From a virus (lineage: Duplodnaviria; Heunggongvirae; Uroviricota; Caudoviricetes): a DNA stretch of 32,182 bases. Each line of letters starts with the position of its first letter. Within the stretch, counting starts at the first letter, position 1. The notes beneath the pieces were generated by a model. That model saw only the letters and a list, made by a program, of their open reading frames with translations. It did no database searches and had not been told where the DNA came from. The translations under genes were made by a program, and so were the position numbers. The stretch lies in the IMG/VR virus record IMGVR_UViG_2870464427_000001, one strand, 5' to 3'. Of the stretch, positions 1 through 12,247 are shown in pieces.

Positions 1-278
1 GGGTGCGAATCGGCGGGAAGGTCCACAGGTATTTTACGATTATTTTAAGATTAGTTATAGGAAAGAAATTAAACGAAAAAACTCGTTTATTTTCACAAAA
101 TCAGTAACCTACCCACAATCTGTGAGTTTGCAGGCACAACAAGAACCACAATTTTATGAAGCATAATAGTGGACTATTATTACCTTTTGGGTAAAATTAA
201 CTTGCTGCTTGTGCTTGCGTGGTTGTTTATACAACAACGTAATGCTGAAAGGACCGCGAATCCGATCAGCACGAAAGA

Positions 279-304
279 ACCGTCCTCAATAGGGCGGTTT
301 TTTT
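279..304 (+). terminator. rho-independent terminator-like hairpin
   Basis: 8-bp stem (279-286 pairs with 291-298, one G-U) with 4-nt loop, followed by a run of seven T (298-304). No credible ORF spans it. Confidence 0.4.
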
Positions 305-451
305 GTTTCTGCCTACCAATAAACCCACACTATGTGGTTGTCTCTGTTAAAATCCCGCCGTATTGACATAAATGCGCCATTGGTGGACACTTTCCGAGCC
401 GTAGCAAAATCTACGGCCGGGATTAGCCTCCTGAATAACACGATGGCGCAT

Positions 452-471
452 ACCGCGTTAGCGGTTTTTTT
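452..471 (+). terminator. rho-independent terminator-like hairpin
   Basis: accgc/gcggt 5-bp stem with gtta loop followed by a 7-T run; a second hairpin (gccgtag..ctacggc) lies at about 403-422. Confidence 0.4.
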
Positions 472-633
472 ATGCGTAGAGCACTGTTACGCCCAAATTA
501 TGGTGGGTCGTACAGGGGCGGAGAAATCCGCGCCGGTTCGTCATTGTGTCCGGTAAGGCTAACCCTGTACGGCTCACCACCATTTGATTAGCCTCGAATG
601 GCGGTGATAGTTCCATATACTGGAGATATCACA

Positions 634-825
634 ATGACAAACCTACCCCATGACTATTACGTCAACCTCGTAAAGATCCTTCTCAAGAAAGCCTCATACG
701 CCGATAAATTCCGCCTGGCTGAAATCATCGAGCGCGAAGCTATGCGCATCGCCAGCAACGATAACGCTGTTTCTGACGCAAAAATCTCCCTCGTAACCAA
801 AGTAGTTATGGGAGGTGCAAAATGA
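634..825 (+). CDS. small hypothetical protein translationally coupled to the downstream antirepressor-like gene
   Basis: ORF 598..825; the internal ATG at 634 has a GGAG Shine-Dalgarno 8 nt upstream. Its stop overlaps the next gene's start (ATGA at 822-825). Confidence 0.45.
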   Translation: MTNLPHDYYVNLVKILLKKASYADKFRLAEIIEREAMRIASNDNAVSDAKISLVTKVVMGGAK

Positions 826-1964
826 AAACGCTTCCGACCGTTAACACCCTACAGCCTATCCTGCATAACCAGATCCCCGTTATCACCACGGAGCTGCTTG
901 CCAAACTATATGGCTGTAGCGTCGAATGTCTTCACAGAAATCACCACCGTAATAAGTCCCGGTTTACAGAAGGAAAACATTTCATAGTTGTAAAAGGTAC
1001 AGATCTCCAAAGTTTGAAAATCTCTTTAAGAGATTTTCAAACCATCGCGAATAACGTTAGAAAACTAATCCTCTGGACCGAACGCGGGGCTGCACGTCAC
1101 GCTAAAATGCTCGAAACCGATCAGGCGTGGGATGTATTCGAACGGCTGGAAGACTGCTACTTCAACCAGAACGCGCAAACGGCCGCGACCGTAACCGTCT
1201 CACCAAACAATGCTCGTGAGGTTGTCGATACGCTCAACGCTAAACCAATGTATTACGTTAAGGTGTGCAACAACGAGCCACTCACAACCTCAGCCGATGT
1301 TGCCCAGGCATTCAGCACCACAAACAATTCCATCGTTATGGCCATCGATGCGTTACGCATTCCTCGCACAGCTGCGGCGCGTCACTTCTTTAAAGAACAA
1401 CGACCGCTGGAAGGAAGCGACCGCGAAATAACAATCTATCGCATGACAAAAGACGGATTTACCTTGCTCATGGAAAGTATCGACGGTCCAGGCGTGAAGG
1501 ATATCAAGCTGGCCTACATTGAAGCCTTTAACGCTATCAGCAGCGTGTTAAAAACACAGTACGAGCGTGATCTGGCTAAACGACTGTACCAGGAAAAAAC
1601 GATTATCCGCGCGGCAACAGAGCATAATCGGCTATTAACGGAACCGAACTACAGGAAGGAACTAATCAAGGAGTTTGACAAGGCAACAGGGAAAACCAAA
1701 GCGGCGCTAAATCTGCCAGCAATGACTCAGGAAAATGTGATATCAGCCTTACTTCTTGATCTGCTCAGAAACGCCAGAGCACTTATCAGCTTTGACGAAA
1801 ACCTGAATCCTCAGCTCAAGCTACTACCACCGACAGGCAAAGTAGTCGACCAGGCTGATCACAACAGCATACTCAGCGTTCTGGATGCAAACCTGCCAGC
1901 CAGGACACTACAGGATCTGATAAAAACATGTGCTGATAAGCTGGCACAGAAAAGCAGACCATAA
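822..1964 (+). CDS. phage antirepressor-like protein with N-terminal ORF6N-type domain
   Basis: 380-aa ORF with GGAGG RBS at 811-815. The N-terminal segment (LPVITTELLAKLYG .. RNKSRFTEGKHF .. LWTERGAARHAKMLETDQAWDVFERLEDCYF) matches the ORF6N/antirepressor signature as I recall it. Confidence 0.7.
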   Translation: MKTLPTVNTLQPILHNQIPVITTELLAKLYGCSVECLHRNHHRNKSRFTEGKHFIVVKGTDLQSLKISLRDFQTIANNVRKLILWTERGAARHAKMLETDQAWDVFERLEDCYFNQNAQTAATVTVSPNNAREVVDTLNAKPMYYVKVCNNEPLTTSADVAQAFSTTNNSIVMAIDALRIPRTAAARHFFKEQRPLEGSDREITIYRMTKDGFTLLMESIDGPGVKDIKLAYIEAFNAISSVLKTQYERDLAKRLYQEKTIIRAATEHNRLLTEPNYRKELIKEFDKATGKTKAALNLPAMTQENVISALLLDLLRNARALISFDENLNPQLKLLPPTGKVVDQADHNSILSVLDANLPARTLQDLIKTCADKLAQKSRP

Positions 1965-1968
1965 CTAC

Positions 1969-1982
1969 AAGGGGCTACGGCC
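1969..1982. terminator. GC-rich hairpin between convergent genes (bidirectional terminator candidate)
   Basis: ggggc-tacg-gcccc hairpin immediately after the 822..1964 stop, followed by T-rich sequence. Confidence 0.35.
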
Positions 1983-2163
1983 CCTTACTCTTTTCTCTCT
2001 TATCAACGCCAGAGACTTTCTGAAAATCCTTTCGAATAGCGTCAGCGTCACACGCCAAGCCCATACTGGAACGTGTCGCCATATGACGAAAATGATCAAC
2101 TGCCGGAAACAAAGAAATAATGGACCCAATAGCTTGCAGCAAACTCGCTTTTCTACGCATCAT
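1975..2163 (-). CDS. hypothetical small protein (uncertain)
   Basis: ORF 1975..2187 (70 aa); the first ATG pair is at 2163. No recognisable motif and only a weak RBS. Confidence 0.3.
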   Translation of the reverse strand: MMRRKASLLQAIGSIISLFPAVDHFRHMATRSSMGLACDADAIRKDFQKVSGVDKREKSKGP

Positions 2164-7046: not shown

Positions 7047-7117
7047 TCCACGGAAAACCAACGTATAATGGGAGTTGTCGAGGCGCCCATGGATTGTTGT
7101 TGTTGGTTTTCCGTGGA
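7047..7117. promoter_or_regulatory. 16-bp perfect inverted repeat in the repA leader, 15 nt upstream of the repA start
   Basis: tccacggaaaaccaac (7047-7062) and gttggttttccgtgga (7102-7117) with a 39-nt spacer; could sequester the repA RBS region. Confidence 0.45.
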
Positions 7118-7158
7118 TGTCGCAAGAAGCCCGCAGATTTATCTGCGGGCTTTTTGTT
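7076..7158 (+). ncRNA. candidate CopA-like antisense RNA opposite the repA leader
   Basis: Plus-strand promoter-like -35 TTGCGT (7043-7048) and -10 TATAAT (7064-7069), then about 80 nt ending in a terminator (gcccgcaga / tctgcgggc stem 7128-7149 plus T-run 7150-7158). Size and position resemble CopA of IncFII replicons. Boundaries are inferred. Confidence 0.35.
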
Positions 7159-7344
7159 TCCATATCTGGTCAGTTTCCAACCAGACACCCACAATCATAA
7201 CCACGTTACGTGGTTTTAAGAGAACTCTACCACAACACTTTCGGTCATGCACGAAGTCTCTCACTGATCGAACGATAATCCACCAGTAAAAGGATCTAAA
7301 TTGGATCTCGTTTTGCGAGCATCATACTACTGGCCTAACTCCAG

Positions 7345-9970: not shown

Positions 9971-12247
9971 TTAAATACTTCCCGCGTTATACCAAGTCCC
10001 ATTAATGCAATACTGAATTGGCCTTGCCTGAGTTGTATCAATTAATTCGTCACGGTTCCCGTTAACTGAACCCGTAACGACATAACCTGACCTGTCAGAC
10101 CAGCCGGGACCATTCCATGTCTGAACAGATGACAGACCGCCAAGGCGAATACCTGTAATAAACCTTGAGTTACATTCTGCCTGCGTGTATGCACCAACAT
10201 CTCCCGCAGAGGGTTTGCGGGTCGTGGTGTAAAACTCTGACCAGTCAGCCTCAAATCCGTAACCATCACGCGCTGAACGATAATAAATACCGCCGTTCTT
10301 ATAATTCACACGGAACTGTACGGCAGGGCAACTCCCCTCGCTCATATTGAAATGGAGGATTAATGTCGATGCGCCACCAATATTTGCTTGATAGACCCCG
10401 CTATTCCAGTTCCAGCCAACAGCTTTATCATTTCCGACAGTGCTTCCTGTTTTCCCTAAAGCAAATGCAGGCTGCTGGTTTTTCGTGTTGTAGTCACGTC
10501 GCCAGCCAGGTAAATACCCTGAACCGTGGTTAATATATATAAATTGCGCATTCGTAGTGCCACCACCGCTAGAGGTACTCGGTGTGGTTATACGAATGGT
10601 CATGGCGCCTTTATTGCCCATAACTTCAATAACGCAACCCGCAAGGTGAATAAGTCCACATCCGGTGTCAGTAATAATTTTATTATTGCCGTATGACCAT
10701 GAGCATTTACACATCCAGTATGGATGATTGAAGGCCCACTGAGATTCCAGCCATTCAATAAATTGCGCCGTCGTCCAGTTTCCTGCACCTGTGCTAATAG
10801 AGCCATGAAAAGAGCGGCAAGCACCTATTGTTTGCGTAAATTTATCTTTGTTTGGAATATCTGCGCCGTTCTGGTTTTTCTGCAATGCGCCAGCAGCCTG
10901 ATTTACCGTTTCCTGCAAACCGAGGTATTCGATAACGGCGGAAACGGTCGCTTGAGCCAGAATATCCCGCCCGACTTTTGTCAGAGTTGCCAGGCTGGCA
11001 GTGTCATTCCCCGTAAAATACGGAAACCTGTCTGCCGCAGTAGCAAGCCCGGCCAGCGCCGTCAGGGTGGCATCTTTCGGTTGCTTACCCGCAAGCGCGT
11101 TAGTCATGGTGGTCGCAAAATTCGGGTCGTTGCCCAACGCCGCAGCCAGCTCGTTTAGCGTATTCAGTGCGTCAGGCGACGAGTCCACGAGGGCAGCGAT
11201 CGCAGCCATAACATAAGCCGTGCTTGCGATCTGAGTATTGTTAGTACCTTTTGGCGCAGTTGGTGTTGTTGGTGTTCCGCTCAGCGCCGGACTGTTCAGG
11301 GGCGCTTTCTTGTTCGTTTCATCCATTACCACCTTTACAGCTTTTGATGTCGCGGCCAGTGTTTCAGACGTGCTGTTGGTGGCGCTACTGAGCTGAACAA
11401 TCCCTTTTCGCGCTGTGGTAGCGTCCTGTGCGGTGTATTTAGCGTTAGCAAGGTCATATGCTGCCTTTACCGCCTTTGGCGTTGCTGCCAGCGTCTCAGA
11501 ATCGCTGTTAGTTGCGCTACTAAGCTGAACAATCCCTTTTCGCGCCGTGGTAGCGTCCTGTGCGGTGTATTTAGCGTTAGCCAGGTCATATGCTGCCTTA
11601 ACAGCCTTAGGCGTCGCAGCAAGCGTTTCAGACGTGCTATTGGTGGCGCTGCTAAGTTGAACAAAGCCTTTTGAGGTTAAAGTTGCATCAGGATGATTAC
11701 GTGATTGCTCATGTTTCACAATGGCTTGCTTAAGCCGCTTTGCTGAAACAGCAAGGGAATCATCTGTACCTGCATCAATTTCTTGTTCATTAGCAAATCT
11801 TGCAACCCCAACAACAGTTTCGGTCGCGGGAGGATTAATAAACTCAATATCACCAAATGTAATATTTTTAGTATCAAGAGTCTTAATTGCTATGTCACTT
11901 GATATTAAAGCAATAGTAGATGATGCTTTATTTATTATTGCTTGTTCTTGCGAGTATACAGCAAACAACGTTCCCTTATTTGTATACAATCCTATTGTAT
12001 GGACAACATACTCATCTTTACTATCATCCTTCGCCGTTACATGAATTGTATCAGGGGAAACAACTTTGCCACCTATTGTGGTAAGTCGTTTTATTTCGTC
12101 TGTTATATTTGTTTGTGAGGTTGACGTGACATAATATCTACTACCTAAACCAACAGAAACAATCTCAACTTTATTTGTTCCTGTTTTGTTGGCATTAACC
12201 AACTCCTGACGCCCGGCGTCAGTCATCGTAAATAATAATTTACTCAC
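9971..12247 (-). CDS. tail-fibre protein (P2 H / Mu S-like constant N-terminal part fused to a variable C-terminal cassette)
   Basis: 758 aa; long stretches match P2 gpH as recalled (DATLTSKGF..QLSSATNSTSETLAATPKAVKAAYDLANAKYTAQDATTARKG .. [13 protein letters not shown]); crossover site at codons 442-449. Confidence 0.9.
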   Translation of the reverse strand: MSKLLFTMTDAGRQELVNANKTGTNKVEIVSVGLGSRYYVTSTSQTNITDEIKRLTTIGGKVVSPDTIHVTAKDDSKDEYVVHTIGLYTNKGTLFAVYSQEQAIINKASSTIALISSDIAIKTLDTKNITFGDIEFINPPATETVVGVARFANEQEIDAGTDDSLAVSAKRLKQAIVKHEQSRNHPDATLTSKGFVQLSSATNSTSETLAATPKAVKAAYDLANAKYTAQDATTARKGIVQLSSATNSDSETLAATPKAVKAAYDLANAKYTAQDATTARKGIVQLSSATNSTSETLAATSKAVKVVMDETNKKAPLNSPALSGTPTTPTAPKGTNNTQIASTAYVMAAIAALVDSSPDALNTLNELAAALGNDPNFATTMTNALAGKQPKDATLTALAGLATAADRFPYFTGNDTASLATLTKVGRDILAQATVSAVIEYLGLQETVNQAAGALQKNQNGADIPNKDKFTQTIGACRSFHGSISTGAGNWTTAQFIEWLESQWAFNHPYWMCKCSWSYGNNKIITDTGCGLIHLAGCVIEVMGNKGAMTIRITTPSTSSGGGTTNAQFIYINHGSGYLPGWRRDYNTKNQQPAFALGKTGSTVGNDKAVGWNWNSGVYQANIGGASTLILHFNMSEGSCPAVQFRVNYKNGGIYYRSARDGYGFEADWSEFYTTTRKPSAGDVGAYTQAECNSRFITGIRLGGLSSVQTWNGPGWSDRSGYVVTGSVNGNRDELIDTTQARPIQYCINGTWYNAGSI
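10910..10935 (-). other. gix/cix-like inversion crossover site (right, inside the tail-fibre gene)
   Basis: Minus strand reads ttatcgaatacctcggtttgcaggaa (23/26 to the gix consensus), inverted relative to the left site. Confidence 0.7.
11320..11680 (-). repeat. in-frame tandem repeat (about 129 bp unit, roughly 2.7 copies) encoding phage-fibre repeats
   Basis: Near-identical DNA blocks visible directly; encode the repeated peptide KGIVQLSSATNS.SETLAATPKAVKAAYDLANAKYTAQDATTAR. Confidence 0.7.

Follow-up and report, generated by a model that had tools for sequence, protein, structure and literature searches.

Organization of the locus

The 32,182-nucleotide (nt) stretch of DNA analyzed here, hereafter the window, is the Caudoviricetes record IMGVR_UViG_2870464427_000001 from IMG/VR. 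Near its left end, two RNA genes precede a 63-amino-acid (aa) open reading frame (ORF) and a 380-aa antirepressor-like gene, ant. We consider it very likely, with a probability of about 0.85, that positions 363-1996 form an operon for secondary immunity, of the P1/P7 immI type, on a 48-kb phage-plasmid. The features of the operon and of the region directly upstream are the following:

325-337, no strand assigned: operator-like palindrome CCACACTATGTGG, with the motif CCAC-N5-GTGG
345-353, plus strand: candidate extended -10 element TGtTAAAAT, from reading of the sequence
363-391, plus strand: predicted promoter TTGACA (363-368), 17-nt spacer, GACACT (386-391), from reading of the sequence
398-471, plus strand: isrK / c4-a1b1 RNA (RF01394; 68 bits, threshold 50)
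496-584, plus strand: C4 antisense RNA (RF01695; 70.8 bits, threshold 45)
586-595, plus strand: downstream copy of a 10-bp repeat, holding the target site b2, TTAGCCT (588-594), which starts 4 nt past the end of the C4 match (584)
606-643, plus strand: translation initiation region of the small ORF, with the Shine-Dalgarno (SD) sequence GGAG (622-625), the AUG (634-636) and the target site a2
634-825, plus strand: 63-aa leader ORF, PHROG 7886 (function unknown), in the position of icd
811-825, plus strand: coupling junction, with the SD sequence GGAGG (811-815) inside the small ORF and ATGA at 822-825
822-1964, plus strand: antirepressor-like gene ant, 380 aa, with ORF6N at residues 12-96 and Phage_pRha at residues 155-239
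1969-1996, plus strand: terminator-like hairpin AAGGGGCTACGGCCCCTT with a T-rich tail, from a terminator scan, closing the operon

An Rfam scan of the whole window returned exactly two matches above curated thresholds, isrK and C4. The isrK match consists of hairpin 1 (398-417, GCCGTAG/CTACGGC), hairpin 2 (418-435) and a terminator at 452-471, with its stem at 452-465 and a T run to 471. In a permissive scan, the family c4-a1b1 ("a1, b1 targets of C4", RF03163) matched 385-437, a span that includes both isrK hairpins, with 36.7 bits, which is below its threshold of 46.7. C4 sits between the two copies of the 10-bp repeat and has no terminator of its own. It folds into a 17-bp closing stem that encloses two hairpins (minimum free energy -46.6 kcal/mol, z -6.7). 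Among 37 distinct homologues, 99.6% of alignment cells in the C4 helices are paired and both sides have changed in 14 of the 27 pairs, compared to only 40-48% of cells paired in a control in which the partners were slid by 1-3 columns. The CCACC 3' tail of C4 is invariant in the alignment. The mature C4 RNA is predicted to comprise about 502-581, or approximately 80 nt, with ends based on the annotated c4 of P7, a 77-nt RNA. In P1, C4 is cut from a precursor transcript by RNase P.

The original prediction, made by a model from the letters of the window and a list of its ORFs, had described the first 600 bp as a structured leader containing two terminator-like hairpins, a perfect hairpin at about 403-422 and a 10-bp direct repeat, with no credible ORF. 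These elements are all present. The two terminator stems are at 278-299 (T run to 304) and 452-465 (T run to 471), the perfect hairpin is located at 398-417 and is isrK hairpin 1, and the repeat, GATTAGCCTC, occupies exactly 421-430 and 586-595. Only short ORFs without family support occur in 1-600, a region that is accounted for by RNA genes. Approximately 1-305, including the terminator ending at 304, is outside the leader and belongs to a separate timPR-like module described at the end of this report. None of the hairpins flagged in the prediction is the antisense RNA, a role that falls to the long stem-loop at 496-584, which it had not flagged.

Antisense and target sites covary across relatives

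In the labels of this analysis, a denotes the hairpin-2 loop of C4 and its targets and b the 3' single strand of C4 and its targets; these labels may differ from the P1 lettering. Segment a' is the loop GUCAUUGUG at 540-548, extendable to 535-548, and segment b' is AGGCUAA at 556-562. Each has one site upstream of C4 and one downstream. The two copies of the 10-bp repeat are the b1/b2 target pair, with b1 (TTAGCCT, 423-429) in the six-base loop of isrK hairpin 2. Site a1, ACACGATG (438-445), adjoins the isrK terminator stem on its 5' side and pairs with a' as ACACGAUG with one G·U pair, and a2, CACAAUGAC (630-638), covers the AUG of the 63-aa ORF. As one check of an RNA-based mechanism, the original prediction had proposed a search for complementarity to the ribosome-binding region at 600-640, and such complementarity is found: 535-548 and 630-643 form an inverted repeat with 13 of 14 positions complementary (a'-a2). 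Similarly, 556-565 and 420-429 are complementary at 9 of 10 positions (b'-b1). Duplex energies at the sites are -16.2 kcal/mol for a'-a2, -13.5 for a'-a1, -9.3 for b'-b2 and -11.7 for b'-b1. Energies for whole-molecule duplexes were discarded because they ignore intramolecular structure, and the site-level values were used.

The 10-bp repeat is not significant alone, as by our estimate chance would give about 0.4 exact repeats of this length per 900 nt; its meaning comes from three-way covariation in relatives. A scan of contigs with the 63-aa ORF gave one locus only, and cassette diversity was therefore taken from IMG/VR, with 14 loci collected via the 63-aa ORF and 80 via the AnrP-like N-terminal domain. 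A covariance model placed C4 in nearly all of these loci, and each C4 was compared both with its own flanks (cognate) and with the flanks of other loci (non-cognate). The sample contains 55 distinct cassettes, with 10 variants of b', 21 variants of a' and 29 combinations. A cognate b' match of 7-8 nt at a fixed offset is present upstream (b1) in 54 of the 55 cassettes and downstream (b2) in all 55, at offsets of -72 to -79 for b1 and 0 to +5, mostly +2 to +5, for b2. For non-cognate b' pairs the mean match is 2.7-3.2 nt, and no more than 0.05% of comparisons give a match as long as 7 nt. Likewise, cognate a'-a2 matches average 7.4 nt (minimum 6) compared to 4.5 nt for non-cognate pairs. In the closest relatives, the b site is TTAGCCT, TTGGCGT, TTGGAAC or TTCGAAC, and is the same at all three positions, while the C4 loop and the start-codon site occur as the pairs GTCATTGTG/CACAATGAC, TCATGATGA/TCATCATGA or CATGGTGA/TCACCATG.

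The position of the distal target varies among relatives. Site a2 lies over the start codon in the window and its closest relatives, and just upstream of the SD sequence in the relatives' loci L003 and L016, in P7 and in Gifsy-type loci. The offset is +29 in L003 and L016 and +28 to +35 in Gifsy-type loci. Two other repeats, a 19-nt repeat at 96-114/630-648 (15 of 19 positions) and a 9-nt inverted repeat at 372-380/443-451, were set aside as being, by estimate, within chance expectation for 900 nt.

The initiation region of the small ORF has structure of its own. In the window, a local hairpin at 604-632 (-11.6 kcal/mol) contains the SD sequence GGAG at 622-625. We considered and rejected a conserved SD-sequestering hairpin, which is present in the window's own fold; RNAalifold on eight relatives gave just an invariant CACCACC/GGYGGTG helix, without covariation. 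This helix (575-581 with 601-607) encloses b2 in all eight small-ORF relatives. The fold of the window also shows GGUGAUA of this helix paired to UAUCAC, directly ahead of the AUG. The 575-581/601-607 helix may be a processing-dependent structural switch.

The leader gene, the coupling junction and the antirepressor

The 63-aa ORF is conserved as a protein and is under purifying selection. Synonymous codon changes outnumber non-synonymous changes in comparisons with relatives (22:10, 17:6, 23:17 and 21:18). Its homologues form 39 protein clusters, and all of the named ones are from Enterobacterales. The protein gave no BLASTP alignment with the Icd protein of P7 at E values up to 100, and no Pfam hit. 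In L016 (2501-2690) the small ORF is broken, with a stop after 23 codons, and isrK, C4 and the matching sites are intact.

Several gene calls for the small ORF are over-extended to 95 aa and begin inside C4 (L002, the locus of Yersinia phage vB_YpM_41, at 7052-7339; proteins P0001, P0003 and P0008). Some of these calls are named "ash family protein", and Pfam Phage_ASH (PF10554) matches only residues 2-39, which is the part overlapping the 3' half of C4 and its targets. Because the match is limited to the part that overlaps C4, PF10554 may partly represent translated RNA genes of the C4 type.

The geometry expected for the predicted coupling of the 63-aa ORF to the 380-aa ORF is present in the ATGA at 822-825, which joins the stop codon of the small ORF to the start codon of ant. 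The same junction is found in L002, L003, L010, L013, L014 and L015. The 380-aa product is antirepressor-like, as had been proposed: it contains ORF6N (PF10543, E 7e-18) and Phage_pRha (PF09669, E 4e-12) domains and matches PHROG anti-repressor families, and its C-terminal region has no Pfam match. The protein searches against Icd and Ant families suggested in the original prediction gave a divided result, with no similarity to Icd or to P7 Ant1 and a clear relative in the Gifsy-1 antirepressor AnrP. Ant is 49% identical to AnrP over residues 1-150, the N-terminal ORF6N domain (E 5e-46), and both carry PF10543. With P7 Ant1, which carries the ANT/KilAC domain PF03374, there was no significant alignment.

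Comparison with known immunity systems

In P7, the order of elements is C1 operator, a1b1, c4, approximately 50 nt, icd (73 aa) and ant1, which overlaps icd by 4 nt (ATGA). The window shares this order and spacing: a candidate operator approximately 60-75 nt upstream of the a1b1 hairpins, then a C4-family RNA, the same approximately 50 nt after the C4 end, and a short first cistron (63 aa, compared to 73 aa for icd) with the ATGA overlap. Both systems have two antisense segments, each with one upstream and one downstream target. An immI-like layout with RNA-based control of an antirepressor was the central proposal of the original prediction, and the C4 and isrK matches, the complementarity to the start region and the covariation in 55 cassettes bear it out. 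The differences from P1/P7 lie in the proteins, in one target and in the carrier. The leader is not Icd, and Ant combines ORF6N and Rha domains whereas P7 Ant1 has ANT/KilAC. Site a2 is on the AUG, at +45 from the C4 end, compared to +29 in P7. The primary repressor is XRE/S24-like, with a CCAC-N5-GTGG palindrome, rather than C1, and the carrier is a 48-kb phage-plasmid with P2-like tail genes. Judged by sequence comparison, the proteins of the window are analogues, not homologues, of Icd and P1 Ant.

The window also resembles the IsrK, STnc1160 and AnrP region of Gifsy-1, with the same order of isrK and C4, a terminator after the a1b1 hairpins and a homologous antirepressor. In Gifsy-1, translation of AnrP is IsrK-dependent and coupled via AUGA to an upstream ORF, and overexpression of IsrK induces the prophage (PMC4825925). 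In Gifsy-1 and approximately 70 related IMG/VR loci, ant starts approximately 52 nt after C4, and the Gifsy-1 coupling ORF, orf45, overlaps C4; the window instead has a distinct 63-aa gene between C4 and ant. orf45 starts at an AUG in the 5' stem of C4, and its nucleotide sequence is conserved whereas its amino acid sequence is not (PMC4825925). We looked for an orf45-type ORF inside C4 and rejected the candidate, a frame from the ATG at 500 that has 18 codons and stops at 554-556, within C4. Two Gifsy-1 neighbours, antQ, which encodes a Q-type antiterminator, and isrJ, are absent from the window locus as judged by the genes of the record and the Rfam scan. Compared to AnrP, Ant of the window has an additional Rha domain and C-terminal region. 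The window appears to combine a P1-like gene plan with a Gifsy-like antirepressor.

A third relative in design is the CI RNA of satellite phage P4 (seqA/seqC), likewise a processed small leader RNA flanked by complementary sites. P4 CI acts by premature transcription termination upstream of the replication genes, whereas the distal target in the window covers the start codon of an antirepressor operon.

The locus is a complete example of P1/P7-type c4 immunity in which the antirepressor is of the Gifsy type and the leader protein is novel. The P1/P7 design was already known, and the current understanding of P1-type immunity is not overturned. The result adds the annotation of a secondary-immunity switch to a locus whose RefSeq record lacks one.

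Proposed mechanism and alternatives

The immI-type assignment is directly supported by the RNA family matches, the complementarity and its covariation, the coupling geometry and the protein relationships. We propose that the promoter at 363-391 begins transcription at approximately 398 and that most transcripts would end at the terminator at 452-471, yielding an IsrK-like RNA of approximately 74 nt that displays b1 (423-429) and a1 (438-445). Read-through transcripts would carry the C4 stem-loop (496-584), which would be cut out as an RNA of approximately 80 nt. Its segments a' (540-548) and b' (556-562) would then pair with a2 (630-638) and b2 (588-594) on transcripts of this kind. As a2 includes the start codon of the 63-aa ORF, a'-a2 pairing would block translation of this ORF, and ant, which overlaps the ORF by ATGA, is expected to depend on that translation. 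Without it, ant would be off and the primary XRE/CI-like repressor, the putative target of Ant, would stay active. Rho-dependent polarity operates in P1. The terminated a1b1 RNA carries the same sites as the downstream targets and could therefore titrate C4; in excess, it would switch Ant on, as with IsrK in Gifsy-1. The a and b sequences would set the specificity of immunity.

Several observations weigh against this scheme. Ant has a strong SD sequence of its own (GGAGG, 811-815) and need not depend on translation of the small ORF. The exact-match score of a1 is low in the window, owing to the G·U pair. The promoter, the ends of C4 and its processing are predictions from homology. Neither the small ORF nor Ant is related to its P1 counterpart (Icd and Ant, respectively), so that events downstream may not be those of P1. 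The CACCACC/GGYGGTG helix and the C4 closing stem would compete for the 3' strand of the latter, and none of the models considered here explains this helix. Finally, the published work on Gifsy-1 stresses activation through IsrK and not repression through the C4-like RNA (PMC4825925).

In a possible, though less favored, explanation, control is mainly positive, as in Gifsy-1. The short terminated IsrK-like RNA would pair in trans with the read-through transcript and open the ribosome-binding site of a closed leader, with C4 serving mainly as a structural element in cis instead of a diffusible repressor. IsrK raises orf45/anrP translation at least 100-fold in Gifsy-1, and compensatory mutants back the pairing (PMC4825925). 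The window has the corresponding parts, namely an isrK match with its own terminator and an AnrP-like Ant, and the SD sequence of its leader is within the -11.6 kcal/mol hairpin. However, the Gifsy-1 leader orf45 lies within the C4 segment, and its equivalent in the window, with 18 codons, stops inside C4 and is not joined to ant. The coupled ORF in the window is a separate gene, conserved as a protein and downstream of C4, as in P1/P7. In addition, the covariation ties C4 to a2/b2 as strongly as to a1/b1, for which a purely IsrK-centered model has no need. Activation by IsrK and repression by C4 are compatible in that IsrK could be a decoy for C4.

Transcriptional control of the P4 type is a rather unlikely alternative. 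C4 would pair with nascent a1/b1 and a2/b2 and thereby force termination, either at 452-471 or by Rho further downstream. The location of a1 (438-445) directly 5' of the terminator stem (452-465) would suit such a switch, and the IsrK study regards IsrK as a structural homologue of P4 seqA and suggests that the C4-like STnc1160 possibly modulates the IsrK terminator (PMC4825925). In the family of the window, however, a2 is located exactly on the start codon, which is needed for a translational block but not for a terminator switch, and no terminator-like hairpin was found between b2 and the ORF. Moreover, constitutive STnc1160 failed to counteract IsrK in Gifsy-1 (PMC4825925). Both this alternative and activation by IsrK are partly compatible with the immI-type scheme. 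It is extremely improbable that the hairpins and repeats arose by chance or are decayed relics with no function today: the 10-bp repeat alone is within chance expectation and the RefSeq record annotates no RNA gene here, but two Rfam matches exceed curated thresholds, the C4 helices contain compensatory changes, and antisense and target sites covary three and four ways among the cassettes.

Proposed specificity cartridges and sRNA-Xcc1

The b/a sequences are TTAGCCT/CACAATGAC in the window and TTGGCGT/TCATCATGA in phage vB_YpM_41. Between these two elements, the RNA cassette has 64-88% identity, compared to 99.5% for the small ORF and 98.5% for ant. Divergence of the cassette next to a near-identical small ORF and ant is the pattern expected of an immunity-specificity determinant. 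On balance, we favor the view that the segment from isrK through C4 to the initiation region behaves as a specificity cartridge, which uses a two-site (a x b) code and can be exchanged, also for sRNA-Xcc1 with the same logic. We base this view on the 64-88% identity beside 99-99.5% in the small ORF, on the reassortment of a and b, and on the replacement by sRNA-Xcc1 described below. The a and b sequences would predict cross-immunity within the phage-plasmid family, which bears on phage-plasmid incompatibility and induction. The comparison of 55 cassettes also provides a clean set of natural covariation data on a two-site code of RNA-RNA recognition.

Two of the relatives, L014 (2379-2464) and L015 (2376-2460), have sRNA-Xcc1 (RF02221) in place of C4 before the same 63-aa ORF and ATGA-coupled ant. 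sRNA-Xcc1 has the same topology as C4, with a closing stem, two hairpins, a 3' single strand and a CACC tail, and its closing stem is shorter. It is a separate Rfam family, with no clan link to C4 and no sub-threshold C4 match. No isrK match was present upstream of sRNA-Xcc1 in the tested loci. Each of two segments of sRNA-Xcc1 has two complementary sites, one upstream and one downstream, with compensatory differences between L014 and L015.

These cassettes are not confined to the two loci. A 14-mer search for sRNA-Xcc1 found at least 120 IMG/VR contigs, and all 11 that were tested are above the RF02221 threshold. We distinguished 42 phage cassettes with 27 hairpin-2 variants (loci including L099-L178), in which cognate complementarity averages 7.0-7.4 nt compared to 4.5-5.1 nt for non-cognate pairs. 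The genes downstream of sRNA-Xcc1 were of antirepressor types in 8 of 8 sampled cases (AntA, KilA-N, P22_AR, Rha, ORF6N and Bro-N). In the accessible literature, we found no link of sRNA-Xcc1 to C4-type control; it is treated there as a virulence-linked, trans-acting small RNA (sRNA) of Xanthomonas and Xylella. If the cartridge reading is true, the antisense RNAs of phage immunity would include sRNA-Xcc1 as a second family, and many genomic copies of it would mark antirepressor switches, which could change the interpretation of RF02221.

Predicted promoters and the operator-like palindrome

Transcription from the promoter at 363-391 is predicted to start at approximately 398, the first base of the isrK match. 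The position of this promoter is kept in relatives, and L003 and L016 carry TTGAC...TATATT there; an automated promoter scan of the window did not list it. N15 has a LexA box near the promoter; such a box was rejected for the window, as no CTGT-N8-ACAG sequence with one mismatch or fewer occurs in 1-700. The extended -10 element at 345-353 is kept in close relatives and is absent from L013. The palindrome at 325-337 would lie over the -35 region belonging to this element, an arrangement that may constitute a repressor-controlled upstream promoter resembling that of P1 immI.

In L001, a stretch of the plasmid pP136-7 that extends the window leftwards, CCAC-N5-GTGG occurs in six copies compared to 0.3 expected. 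Three of these flank the XRE/S24-like repressor gene (L001 17135, 17237 and 17988); the others are at window 325-337, at 7201-7213, which is 38 nt upstream of repA, and at 12069-12081. A degenerate copy with one mismatch is located at 113-125. vB_YpM_41 has palindromes at the same positions, and its repressor is 99% identical to that of pP136-7. The palindrome is probably the operator of the primary repressor, to judge from this distribution. If so, binding of the repressor would tie immI as well as plasmid replication to the control of lysogeny.

The carrier element and its relatives

Positions 1-2400 of the window are 100% identical to pP136-7, a 48-kb circular plasmid of Escherichia coli O141:H4, and are 95.5% identical to Yersinia phages vB_YpM_41 and vB_YpM_44 and 94.4% identical to vB_YpM_39. 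The pP136-7 record is that of a phage-plasmid, with genes for terminase, baseplate and tail fibres, holins, RepA and ParA, and its tail genes are P2-like. Its primary repressor gene encodes a 218-aa, XRE-type protein that weakly matches S24 peptidase. Of 5,426 complete E. coli genomes, 64 contain at least 80% of the 2.4 kb used as the query. The carriers are a widespread family of phage-plasmids of approximately 48 kb in E. coli, Salmonella and Yersinia. The RefSeq record has a 1.1-kb gap before the 63-aa ORF, with no annotated RNA gene in it. The neighbours of the locus are ParA, a small ORF and timP upstream, and helix-turn-helix (HTH) and hypothetical genes downstream.

A timP(ryfA)/TimR-like toxin-antitoxin module

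Window 1-305 is a timP(ryfA)/TimR-like type I toxin-antitoxin module that is separate from immI and owns the terminator ending at 304. Its two RNA genes are as follows:

1-26, minus strand: 5' end of the timP/ryfA toxin mRNA (RF00126, 142 bits, at L001 19730-20026, minus strand)
204-304, plus strand: TimR-like antitoxin sRNA, from its complementarity to the ryfA 5' untranslated region (UTR), its terminator fold and a promoter-like element

The timP gene runs past the left edge of the window, and the full ryfA match ends at window position 26. A hydrophobic 40-aa ORF begins at nt 147 of the ryfA RNA. The 5' end of the sRNA, GCUGCUUGUGCUUGC (204-218), has 15 nt of perfect complementarity to nt 66-80 of the ryfA 5' UTR, a site that precedes the toxin start codon by more than 60 nt. 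A promoter-like element, TGGACT-16-TAAAAT, is located upstream of the sRNA at 170-197, and an intrinsic terminator with a stem at 278-299 and a T run to 304 ends it. The fold of 200-306 has a minimum free energy of -43.2 kcal/mol (z -5.5), with the terminator as a strong 3' hairpin. RNAI-like (26.7 bits) and Phe-leader-like (23.1 bits) Rfam hits at 195-306 were rejected, as they are far under threshold and the TimR-like sRNA explains the stretch better.

The layout at 1-305 is the same as the published timP/TimR arrangement (PMC7667032), with a ryfA match, a hydrophobic ORF, a divergent sRNA that pairs with the toxin 5' UTR and an intrinsic terminator. The known system is chromosomal, whereas this one is borne on a plasmid or phage, and the predicted transcription starts are here approximately 178 nt apart with an operator-like half-palindrome between them. 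In some relatives (L002 6125-6697 and the equivalent position of L004), a 190-aa HTH gene of the XRE type is inserted on the minus strand between the TimR-like sRNA and the palindrome; this insert is present in the Yersinia phages and several E. coli plasmids and absent from the window. The complementarity between the sRNA and the toxin 5' UTR is kept despite altered sequence in L013 and L002.

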